Assembly: GCF_013122565.1 (NCBI RefSeq)
Contig: NZ_CP053258.1
Source of the DNA: Escherichia coli
Lineage (GTDB): Bacteria > Pseudomonadota > Gammaproteobacteria > Enterobacterales > Enterobacteriaceae
Direction: 5' to 3' (one strand)
DNA: 64,000 nt
The notes under the pieces are model-generated. The model was not told the DNA's origin. It saw only the letters and a list, made by a program, of their open reading frames with translations, and ran no database searches. Within the stretch, counting starts at the first letter, position 1, and every line of letters begins with the position of its first letter. A program made the position numbers and the translations under genes. Positions 45,305 through 48,863 of the stretch are shown here, one piece after another.

Positions 45305-46318
45305 ATGAATACTGAAGCCACGCACGACCAAAATGAAGCACTTACTACCGGCGCTCGCCTGCGTAATGCTCGCGAACAACTAGGACTTAGTCAGCAGGCC
45401 GTTGCCGAGCGACTTTGCCTGAAGGTTTCCACGGTACGCGACATTGAAGAAGATAAGGCACCCGCCGATCTTGCTTCAACATTCCTGCGCGGATATATCC
45501 GCTCTTATGCGCGTCTGGTACATATTCCAGAAGAAGAACTGCTGCCAGGGCTGGAAAAGCAGGCTCCACTACGGGCTGCAAAAGTTGCGCCGATGCAGAG
45601 TTTTTCCCTCGGTAAACGCCGCAAAAAACGTGACGGCTGGCTGATGACCTTCACCTGGCTGGTGTTGTTTGTGGTTATCGGCCTGAGCGGTGCCTGGTGG
45701 TGGCAAGACCACAAAGCTCAGCAGGAAGAGATCACCACTATGGCCGATCAATCTTCGGCGGAACTGAGCAGTAATAGCGAGCAGGGGCAGAGTGTTCCGT
45801 TAAATACGTCGACAACTACAGATCCGGCTACAACGTCCACGCCGCCAGCGTCTGTGGATACTACCGCAACCAACACGCAAACACCTGCCGTAACTGCGCC
45901 AGCACCAGCTGTTGATCCGCAACAGAATGCGGTTGTCTCGCCTTCGCAGGCAAATGTTGAGACCGCCGCGACCCCGGCACCAACGGCAACAACAACGCCA
46001 GATGGCGCTGCGCCGTTGCCAACCGATCAGGCTGGCGTGACCACGCCGGCGGCTGATCCGAATGCGCTGGTGATGAACTTTACTGCCGATTGCTGGCTGG
46101 AGGTCACTGATGCTACCGGTAAAAAATTGTTTAGCGGTATGCAGCGTAAAGACGGTAATTTGAACTTAACCGGCCAGGCACCGTACAAACTGAAAATTGG
46201 TGCGCCAGCCGCAGTACAGATCCAGTATCAAGGGAAACCTGTCGATCTGAGTCGTTTTATCAGAACTAACCAGGTTGCGCGTCTGACCCTCAATGCCGAA
46301 CAATCACCGGCGCAGTAA
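45305..46318 (+). CDS. rodZ: Cytoskeleton protein RodZ
   Basis: N-terminal HTH, single TM segment ([21 protein letters not shown]), T/P-rich linker; 337 aa. Confidence 0.94.
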
Positions 46319-46344: not shown

Positions 46345-47463
46345 ATGCATAACCAGGCTCCAATTCAACGTAGAAAATCAACACGTATTTACGTTGGGAA
46401 TGTGCCGATTGGCGATGGTGCTCCCATCGCCGTACAGTCCATGACCAATACGCGTACGACAGACGTCGAAGCAACGGTCAATCAAATCAAGGCGCTGGAA
46501 CGCGTTGGCGCTGATATCGTCCGTGTATCCGTACCGACGATGGACGCGGCAGAAGCGTTCAAACTCATCAAACAGCAGGTTAACGTGCCGCTGGTGGCTG
46601 ACATCCACTTCGACTATCGCATTGCGCTGAAAGTAGCGGAATACGGCGTCGATTGTCTGCGTATTAACCCTGGCAATATCGGTAATGAAGAGCGTATTCG
46701 CATGGTGGTTGACTGTGCGCGCGATAAAAACATTCCAATCCGTATTGGCGTTAACGCCGGATCGCTGGAAAAAGATCTGCAAGAAAAGTATGGCGAACCG
46801 ACGCCGCAGGCGTTGCTGGAATCCGCCATGCGTCATGTTGATCATCTCGATCGCCTGAACTTCGATCAGTTCAAAGTTAGCGTGAAAGCGTCTGACGTCT
46901 TCCTCGCTGTTGAGTCTTATCGTTTGCTGGCAAAACAGATCGATCAGCCACTGCATCTGGGGATCACCGAAGCCGGTGGTGCGCGCAGTGGGGCAGTAAA
47001 ATCCGCCATTGGTTTAGGTCTGCTGCTGTCTGAAGGCATCGGCGACACGCTGCGCGTATCGCTGGCGGCCGATCCGGTCGAAGAGATCAAAGTCGGTTTC
47101 GATATTTTGAAATCGCTGCGTATCCGTTCGCGCGGGATCAACTTCATCGCCTGCCCAACCTGTTCGCGTCAGGAGTTTGATGTTATCGGTACGGTTAACG
47201 CGTTGGAGCAACGCCTGGAAGATATCATCACTCCGATGGACGTTTCGATAATCGGCTGCGTGGTGAATGGCCCAGGTGAGGCGCTGGTTTCTACACTCGG
47301 CGTCACCGGCGGCAACAAGAAAAGCGGCCTCTATGAAGATGGCGTGCGCAAAGACCGTCTGGACAACAACGATATGATCGACCAGCTGGAAGCACGCATT
47401 CGTGCGAAAGCCAGTCAGCTGGACGAAGCGCGTCGAATTGACGTTCAGCAGGTTGAAAAATAA
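46345..47463 (+). CDS. ispG: 4-hydroxy-3-methylbut-2-enyl diphosphate synthase
   Basis: Fe-S ligands CPTCSR...GCVVNGPGE; 372 aa. Confidence 0.96.
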
Positions 47464-47465
47464 TA

Positions 47466-47560
47466 ACGTGATGGGAAGCGCCTCGCTTCCCGTGTATGAT
47501 TGAACCCGCATGGCTCCCGAAACATTGAGGGAAGCGTTGAGGGTTCATTTTTATATTCAG
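47466..47560 (+). ncRNA. sroE: Possible SroE-like sRNA in the ispG-hisS intergenic region
   Basis: Position-only inference: I recall an sRNA (SroE) in the ispG-hisS spacer of E. coli; region contains hairpin gggaagcg-cctc-gcttccc (47473-47491). Sequence identity was not verified. Confidence 0.25.
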
Positions 47561-47573
47561 AAAGAGAATAAAC

Positions 47574-48863
47574 GTGTCGAAGAAAATTCAGTCTGTACGC
47601 GGTATGAATGATTATTTGCCAGTGGAAACCGCTGTATGGCAACGCGTTGAGCGCATAATTAAAAGCGTCGTTGAGTCTTACGGATACAGTGAGATTCGCA
47701 CACCTATTCTTGAGCAAACGCCACTGTTTAAGCGCGCTATCGGTGAAGTTACTGATGTTGTTGAAAAGGAGATGTACACCTTCAACGATCGTGAGCGTGA
47801 TGCGAAAGAGGTTGTTTCGTTAACTCTTCGCCCTGAAGGTACAGCAGGATGTGTACGCGCCGGCATCGAGCATGGCCTTCTGTACAATCAGGAACAGCGT
47901 TTGTGGTATATGGGACCGATGTTCCGCCACGAGCGCCCGCAAAAAGGGCGTTATCGTCAGTTCCACCAAATCGGTCTGGAAGTTTTCGGTCTGCAAGGTC
48001 CGGATATCGACGCTGAACTGATTATGCTCACCGCCCGCTGGTGGCGTGCGCTGGGTATCTCCGAACACGTAACTCTTGAGCTGAACTCTATCGGTTCGCT
48101 GGAAGCACGTGCCAATTACCGCGATGCGCTGGTGGCATTCCTCGAGCAGCATAAAGAAAAGCTGGACGAAGACTGCAAACGTCGCATGTACACTAACCCG
48201 CTGCGCGTGCTGGATTCAAAAAATCCGGAAGTGCAGGCGCTTCTCAACGACGCTCCGGCATTAGGTGATTATCTGGACGAGGAATCTCGTGAGCATTTTG
48301 CCGGTCTGTGCAAACTGCTTGAGAGCGCGGGGATCGCTTACACCGTAAACCAGCGTCTGGTGCGTGGTCTGGATTACTATAACCGTACCGTTTTCGAGTG
48401 GGTGACTAACAGTCTCGGCTCCCAGGGCACCGTGTGTGCAGGCGGTCGTTATGACGGTCTTGTGGAACAACTGGGCGGTCGTGCAACACCGGCTGTCGGT
48501 TTTGCGATGGGCCTCGAACGTCTTGTATTGTTAGTACAGGCCGTTAATCCGGAATTTAAAGCCGATCCTGTTGTCGATATCTATCTGGTGGCTTCAGGTG
48601 CTGATACACAATCTGCGGCTATGGCATTAGCTGAGCGTCTGCGTGATGAATTACCGGGCGTGAAACTGATGACCAACCACGGCGGCGGCAACTTTAAGAA
48701 ACAGTTTGCCCGTGCTGATAAATGGGGTGCCCGCGTTGCTGTGGTGCTGGGTGAGTCTGAAGTGGCTAACGGCACAGCTGTAGTGAAGGATTTGCGCTCT
48801 GGTGAGCAAACGGCAGTTGCGCAGGATAGCGTAGCCGCGCATTTGCGCACGTTACTGGGTTAA
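47574..48863 (+). CDS. hisS: Histidine--tRNA ligase
   Basis: Class II aaRS motifs; GTG start (first in-frame start; next Met would delete the conserved N-terminus); 429 aa; the first ~130 codons look divergent from the K-12 protein as I remember it. Confidence 0.93.

Follow-up and report, generated by a model that had tools for sequence, protein, structure and literature searches.

How hisS, the gene for histidyl-tRNA synthetase (HisRS), can look foreign at its 5′ end and entirely ordinary beyond it is the question raised by a 64,000-nucleotide (nt) stretch of Escherichia coli DNA (assembly GCF_013122565.1, contig NZ_CP053258.1), which we refer to in full length as the window and whose coordinates are used for all positions below. 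A first-pass annotation of the window had remarked that the N-terminal region of its HisS diverges from that of K-12 while the rest resembles it, and had proposed an intragenic recombination with DNA from a more distant lineage. We consider it highly likely that codons 2-135 of this gene were replaced by a homologous piece from a distant Enterobacterales bacterium, that the outcome is a functional chimera, and that the exchange was neutral or nearly so. The surroundings are unremarkable, with genes in the usual E. coli order rlmN-rodZ-ispG-hisS-yfgM-bamB-der.

The divergent tract is sharply bounded. For nucleotide comparison, 7.5 kb were aligned with E. coli REL606, whose HisS (WP_001107167.1) has 424 amino acids (aa), and identity was scored in sliding 100-nt intervals. 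The resulting profile is not uniform and steps at 47577 and 47978. The former position, in the second codon, is the first difference in the gene and the latter is the last clustered one, and nearly every third base in the tract is mismatched, along with many first and second codon positions. Identity is 63-79% in the intervals across 47544-47893 and 86-91% in those across 47844-48043, whereas all other intervals of the alignment are 94-100% identical, including 100% for those within 47294-47543 and 95-100% downstream of 47994. Taken as a whole, the tract (47577-47978) is 73.1% identical to REL606, as against 98.4% in the remaining hisS. At the protein level, residues 136-429 are 100% identical to both REL606 and the structure PDB 1KMM, whereas residues 1-135 are 81% identical. 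The contrast between a divergent N-terminus and a K-12-like remainder is thereby confirmed, and the K-12 peptides that the first-pass annotation quoted are correct. Alignment with 1KMM also bears out its explanation of the protein's length: HisS has 429 rather than 424 aa because of five inserted residues, AKEVV, that follow Asp76 in E. coli numbering. Two further suggestions did not survive. The tract was thought possibly to extend into the ispG-hisS spacer, yet 47251-47576, with the small RNA SroE included, is identical to REL606; and the GTG start codon, which had been listed as part of the anomaly, is the usual hisS start in E. coli and in all other Enterobacterales genomes examined.

With its abrupt breakpoints, native flanks and a silent-site divergence that testifies to a long separate history, the tract is an interspecies mosaic (recombinant) allele. 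Across its 134 codons it departs from normal E. coli hisS by about 61 synonymous and 32 nonsynonymous changes, corresponding to a proportion of differing synonymous sites (pS) of 0.70, a synonymous divergence (dS) of about 2.1 and a nonsynonymous divergence (dN) of 0.114; the other 294 codons have a dS of 0.07 and a dN of 0. The G+C content at third codon positions (GC3) is 0.48 in the tract vs. 0.63 in the native E. coli segment that it replaces. Derived characters, the 5-residue insertion among them, are common to the tract and to the HisRS of Budvicia/Limnobaculum and Superficieibacter. Typed site by site, the window HisS has Budvicia-type residues at positions 2-80 and is of E. coli type thereafter, and the nearest relatives of the two parts differ, being Superficieibacter and Budvicia for the tract and E. 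coli for the remainder. Sharp edges, saturated silent sites, the GC3 shift and shared derived characters together sustain the earlier proposal of an intragenic recombination from a distant lineage with a breakpoint near residue 135.

The allele is not peculiar to the window. A 451-nt hisS segment was surveyed across 5,425 complete E. coli genomes, and these fell into two discrete classes with none between: 53 carriers, 50 of them at ≥99.6% identity and 3 at about 97%, which make up about 1% of the total, and 5,372 genomes at about 77%. Every genome has hisS in exactly one place (5,425/5,425), and the locus is syntenic. The exact chimeric protein is present on at least 1,000 public contigs, where it is named “MULTISPECIES: histidine--tRNA ligase [Escherichia],” and it merges into the normal HisRS cluster at 90% clustering. 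At the level of the locus, thirteen carriers, two non-carriers and REL606 were compared with the window. The 50 carriers at ≥99.6% (group A; HisS WP_000037894.1) are one synonymous base (47948) off the window tract, have flanking single-nucleotide polymorphisms (SNPs) of their own at 47259, 47340, and 47480 upstream and at 48266 and others downstream, and possess a different rodZ allele; they comprise two sub-haplotypes that differ only downstream of 48018. Sequence type (ST) 457 (CREC-544; PMC9860340) and ST1722 (TCM3e1; PMC8801394) are among their backgrounds.

The three carriers at about 97% (group B; HisS WP_032184882.1) belong to Escherichia cryptic clade I, where carriers and non-carriers can be set side by side, as EC42405, which has the tract, and 2013C-4282, which lacks it, are both listed as clade I (PMC10100065). 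Differences between carrier and non-carrier of clade I are spread over 47577-48050, after which a single site (48374) separates the two as far as 49228; the clade-I import therefore has the same 5′ edge and an end 72 nt further downstream, at 48050. The group-B 3′ hisS haplotype is found at 99.9% identity in 16 further genomes. The two that were examined lack the tract, and the other 14 must lack it as well, because there are only 53 carriers and the group-A 3′ haplotype cannot reach 99%. The clade-I version adds the substitution A159E (giving “WWRELG,” as in Budvicia). Within 47577-47978 it departs from the window at 12 positions, all of them synonymous because residues 1-135 are identical, and it is distinguished from the group-A tract by 11 synonymous sites and the different 3′ end. 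The 5′ edge is the same in group A, group B and the window, although the flanks of the window match neither group, the best complete genome reaching 99.1% over ispG and the spacer and 98.9% over the 3′ part of hisS. Simple trimming cannot turn either of the clade-I and group-A tracts into the other; closely related donors may have supplied the tract two or more times, or a single ancient import may have been followed by divergence of its descendants and erosion at the edges.

Where the N-terminal module came from was pursued among GTDB species representatives, a set of 5.8 billion proteins and JGI metagenomes, with a chimera of the window N-terminus and the Budvicia C-terminus as the protein query. 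The normal module, which begins MAKNIQAIRG, is 97-99% identical in aa within the Enterobacteriaceae and 91-92% identical to that of Yersinia, Hafnia, and Serratia. Outside Escherichia, the variant module was seen, among the matches listed, only in Budvicia/Limnobaculum, in assembly GCA_000307305.1 and in Superficieibacter. The tract is 89% identical in aa and 77-78% in nt to Budvicia aquatica and B. diplopodorum, 77.6% in nt to GCA_000307305.1, and 91% in aa and 82% in nt (81.8%, with a dS of about 1.5) to Superficieibacter electus. The variant module is also carried by “Budviciaceae bacterium BWR-B9” and, with an insertion of 3 residues, by Limnobaculum parvum; an insertion of the same length as in the tract (5 residues) is present in Budvicia, Superficieibacter, and the proteins P0124 and P0149. 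A scan of the JGI metagenomes with the degenerate motif M-Y-T-F-x-D-R-E-R-D recovered just two contigs, one Superficieibacter-like (80%) and one Budviciaceae-like (78%). In Budvicia, Superficieibacter, and GCA_000307305.1 alike, the variant gene lies in the normal chromosomal ispG-hisS-yfgM context.

Two of these relatives have a mixed history of their own. Other Budviciaceae, namely Pragia, Leminorella, and a metagenome-assembled genome (MAG), combine a normal module with a Budviciaceae-type C-terminal part, and in this family the N-terminal module is decoupled from the rest of HisRS. Over residues 136-190 the MAG protein P0125 (Budviciaceae) matches B. aquatica at 100%, but over residues 1-135, which are of the normal Enterobacterales type, at only 76%. 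All of the Superficieibacter-labelled or Superficieibacter-like sequences retrieved carry the variant module. At informative sites their HisRS switches near residue 185-195 from the Budvicia type to the Enterobacteriaceae type, the C-terminal part is 90% identical to E. coli and 73% to Budvicia, and the 5′ untranslated region (UTR) is E. coli-like, a pattern that marks Superficieibacter hisS as itself a mosaic, with a different 3′ breakpoint. Since it is only 82% identical in nt to the tract, at a dS of about 1.5, it represents a separate, older event and not the donor.

The normal module has a peculiarity of its own. In normal-type hisS, dS between E. coli and Citrobacter is 0.29 in the 5′ 400 nt that encode the module vs. 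0.87 in the remaining gene; between E. coli and Yersinia it is 0.96 in the module vs. saturated in the remaining gene; and GC3 is 0.63 in the module vs. 0.54 elsewhere. This suggests that the normal 5′ stretch of hisS is under an extra constraint at the level of mRNA or DNA, or that it has been exchanged among the Enterobacteriaceae in the past.

As for how the tract arrived, we infer an in-place replacement by recombination between diverged sequences (gene conversion), for which the donor would have been a distantly related Enterobacterales bacterium with the variant N-terminal HisRS module. The left crossover would lie just after SroE, where the 5′ UTR ends in a conserved stretch and the start codon follows, and the right crossover within or right after the highly conserved stretch that encodes motif 2. 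The last 13-32 nt ahead of the GTG are conserved across the Enterobacterales (AGAGAAT[A/T][A/G]AC GTG), with Superficieibacter matching at 30/32, and in the motif-2 coding stretch (47836-47978 or, taken further, to 48031) identity between E. coli and the donor type is about 90%. The edges of the tract coincide with these two stretches, the only ones in which the donor type and E. coli stay similar, and such short conserved anchor segments would also lead independent events to share a 5′ edge at codon 2. Because it is so divergent, the tract, once in place, would behave as a block that recombination cannot break. The allele is now a minority polymorphism of the ST457 and ST1722 backgrounds, cryptic clade I, and the window's own background, and the replacement itself was most likely neutral or nearly neutral.

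The chimera has retained the signature of a genuine HisRS. It scores 518.1 bits on the TIGR00442 hisS equivalog model (cutoff 286.75), close to the 523.0 bits of the normal E. coli protein, whereas its 162.8 bits on the HisZ model TIGR00443 are under the cutoff of 271.65, and it is accordingly not a HisZ. Among Pfam domains, PF13393 (tRNA-synt_His) matches residues 10-317 at 151.7 bits and PF03129 (HGTP_anticodon) residues 341-425 at 42.6 bits, and the chimera aligns over its full length with PDB 1KMM, 2EL9, and 1HTT at an expect value (E) of about 1e-272. All invariant residues of a 26-sequence HisRS alignment are present, and motif 2, LRPEGT, and GGRYDG are kept. Purifying selection on the imported module follows from a comparison of its two Escherichia versions, which are separated by 12 synonymous changes and 0 nonsynonymous ones. 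The chimera, the only hisS copy in 53 finished genomes, is in all probability functional, the sole HisRS of the cell and itself subject to purifying selection.

Several points nevertheless weigh against this account of a neutral replacement from a distant donor that yielded a working enzyme. Sequences that differ by about 27% should recombine only very rarely; yet there are at least two Escherichia versions (with ends at 47978 vs. 48050, and 11-12 synonymous differences) in addition to an independent Superficieibacter mosaic, and such recurrence fits poorly with a single event of a purely neutral kind. A donor closer than 82% in nt was not found among the GTDB-representative matches listed, the 5.8-billion-protein set or the JGI metagenomes, and the direct donor is therefore unsampled. 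Nor was a near-identical donor lineage encountered there, the best being S. electus at 82% in nt, a result that falls short of proving absence, as mosaic proteins from other genera can hide inside 90%-identity protein clusters. Moreover, the enzyme function of the chimera is read from its sequence, and an AlphaFold2 model built from the 26-sequence alignment had a mean predicted local distance difference test score (pLDDT) of only 62, with the catalytic core below 50, and was not used.

The recurrence invites an adaptive interpretation, which we regard as unlikely. Here, the variant module, comprising helix alpha-1, motif 1 and an enlarged hairpin loop, would allow its bearer to escape an agent that acts on the normal module; conceivable agents are a toxin that binds HisRS, a phage factor, a natural inhibitor, or one directed at the mRNA or DNA of the 5′ part of hisS. 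Such an advantage would explain why the module was taken up repeatedly. It is found on at least four C-terminal backgrounds (Budviciaceae, Superficieibacter, Escherichia, and GCA_000307305.1); the two Escherichia versions have different 3′ ends, and each is surrounded by sequence native to the lineage that carries it, the clade-I pair differing at one site in the 1.1 kb past the tract; and the Superficieibacter mosaic, which breaks near residue 185-195, also starts at codon 2. The normal module is, in addition, unusually frozen, at 91-99% aa identity across families. On the other hand, a literature search brought up nothing directed at bacterial HisRS, be it a toxin, a phage factor, or a natural product, the allele is still at about 1%, homology constraints alone would also produce a shared 5′ edge, and saturation of the divergence precludes testing for positive selection by dN/dS. 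A broader form of this idea strikes us as improbable: the N-terminal HisRS residues, about 135-190 of them, would constitute an exchangeable module, the divergent version of which, with its insertion, would have arisen in or near Budvicia/Limnobaculum and been grafted at least three times, into E. coli sensu stricto, clade I, and Superficieibacter, each time from codon 2, because it escapes an agent that acts on the normal module or its mRNA. The recurrence of the graft could reflect selection on HisRS or on the 5′ mRNA; it could equally be due to homology constraints alone.

It is very improbable, in our estimation, that the tract derives by gene conversion from a second copy of hisS on a plasmid, megaplasmid, or phage that entered the Enterobacteriaceae repeatedly. 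With a mobile template of this kind, it would be less surprising that different hosts received the module repeatedly, and Enterobacteriaceae megaplasmids with their own hisS have been described (bioRxiv 10.1101/2025.09.30.679422). Those copies are, however, far more divergent, the best non-E. coli match of one of them being a Serratia protein at about 64% aa similarity, and as donors they are ruled out on that account. When 72,556 plasmids and 50,697 phage records were searched with the module by tblastn, variant-type hisS was absent and only the normal type came up (best 81%), mostly from chromosome-sized or misassigned records. Carriers have exactly one hisS, and the variant gene of Budvicia, Superficieibacter, and GCA_000307305.1 is in its normal chromosomal context.

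There is next to no chance that E. coli hisS diverged rapidly in situ, through a mutational burst or positive selection and without transfer, an idea that would account for the clustering of the changes and nothing beyond, and that is refuted by silent-site saturation (61 synonymous vs. 32 nonsynonymous changes in 134 codons and a pS of 0.70, next to 294 codons with a dS of 0.07), by the shift in composition, by derived states and an insertion shared with Budvicia and Superficieibacter, and by two discrete allele classes with zero intermediates among 5,425 genomes. The chance that the junctions are an artefact of assembly or contamination, in the form of a chimeric contig, is just as negligible, and is refuted by the same junctions in 53 genomes, which many laboratories finished independently and which come from many hosts, and by the exact chimeric protein on at least 1,000 contigs.

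Replacement of hisS codons 2-135 from a distant donor has well-known parallels. In mosaic penA of Neisseria and pbp2x and pbp2b of Streptococcus pneumoniae, blocks of essential genes have been swapped in place by DNA of other species. These share with hisS the sharp steps in divergence, a functional chimera, and alleles that spread within the species. They differ in having identified donors of the same genus, typically 5-20% divergent, naturally transformable hosts, and selection by beta-lactams, whereas the hisS donor type belongs to another genus or family at about 27% nt divergence; E. coli is not known as a naturally transformable species, and we know of no selective agent for the hisS mosaic. 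Ordinary imports into the core genome of E. coli have other members of the species as their source and are typically 1-3% different. The hisS tract resembles them in its length of a few hundred bp, its place in a core gene, its inheritance as a block and its presence in several backgrounds, but is unlike them in its roughly 27% divergence and extra-generic origin. Superficieibacter hisS is a further parallel to the E. coli mosaic: it likewise has an E. coli-like 5′ UTR followed from codon 2 by the variant module and then by a C-terminal part of the Enterobacteriaceae type, but it breaks near residue 185-195 where the Escherichia versions break at 135 or 159.

Horizontal transfer of whole aminoacyl-tRNA synthetase (aaRS) genes is another parallel, the classic work reportedly being that of Woese, Olsen, Ibba, and Soll. 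Whole-gene transfers of aaRS are like the hisS mosaic in that the phylogeny of the gene conflicts with that of the organism despite an essential, “informational” role. They are mostly whole-gene replacements or added paralogues, often for self-resistance to antibiotics, whereas the hisS case is intragenic, takes in one third of the catalytic domain, and concerns a single-copy gene in its native context. An alternative aaRS of the resistance type (of the mupM/ileS2 kind) was considered and rejected, given one hisS per genome in 5,425 genomes and the native ispG-hisS-yfgM context, which offers neither a mobile element nor a biosynthetic cluster. A literature search found no paper on this particular hisS mosaic. 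Horizontal mobility of aaRS genes is well documented (e.g., Chaliotis et al., 2017; PMC5388404). The hisS case is a new example of a known phenomenon, and the recurrence of the module swap is its only intriguing element.

What makes the case significant is a clean, well-bounded recombination across genera or families in a translation gene that is essential and present in a single copy, and this in the most thoroughly studied of all bacteria. A foreign piece that is about 27% divergent is far past the usual view of what homologous recombination in E. coli tolerates, and a HisRS that is chimeric in its catalytic domain would seem to be viable in nature. There are practical consequences as well. 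More than 100 SNPs and a 15-nt insertion-deletion in one core gene can distort distances based on SNPs or core-genome multilocus sequence typing (cgMLST), and phylogenies that are unaware of recombination, for ST457, ST1722, and clade I. Marker-gene taxonomy could be confused too, as hisS is used as a single-copy marker (e.g., bioRxiv 10.1101/2025.09.30.679422). If the recurrence were to reflect selection, it would point to an undiscovered agent that targets bacterial HisRS.

The features of the locus are collected in Table 1.

Table 1. Features of the hisS locus in window coordinates, with the basis for each assignment.
Feature	Position	Strand	Basis
hisS coding sequence, chimeric histidine--tRNA ligase	47574..48863	+	open reading frame (ORF), GTG start, 429 aa
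Imported tract, codons 2-135	47577..47978	+	first and last clustered mismatches against REL606
5-codon insertion AKEVV	47802..47816	+	gap after Asp76 of 1KMM; placement depends on the alignment within about 47795-47820
Putative 5′ crossover interval, ribosome-binding site and start codon (...TTCAGAAAGAGAATAAAC GTG), right after SroE	47544..47576	+	
Putative 3′ crossover interval (window and group A)	47979..48031	+	zero differences against REL606
SroE small RNA, ispG-hisS spacer, native	47463..47554	+	Rfam RF00371, 116.6 bits, gathering score 51, full length
ispG, native upstream neighbor	46345..47463	+	ORF and annotation of homologous locus; 97-100% against REL606 per 100-nt interval

The surrounding sequence offers a few observations of its own. 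The 3′ end of SroE is 20 nt ahead of the hisS start codon, and a consensus scan of 47300-48100 found no promoter or terminator. Across 24 kb of the window (36000-60000), the best match in a complete E. coli genome is 97.7%; the top matches consist of two pieces and extend over about 28.8 kb, and there is therefore a difference of about 4.8 kb near sinH/yfhM/pbpC. In the rodZ linker (45757-46127), group A (WP_001090831.1, 336 aa) is only 77-86% identical to the window and REL606 and has a 3-nt difference in length; this second highly divergent patch, at a distance of 1.5 kb on the upstream side of hisS, falls in the part of RodZ that is repetitive and rich in Pro/Thr/Ala. Within ispG, EC42405 and 2013C-4282 differ at about 22 sites in 0.4 kb (46563-46977) and are near-identical from 46978 to the tract, and this difference is a separate, ordinary recombination patch.

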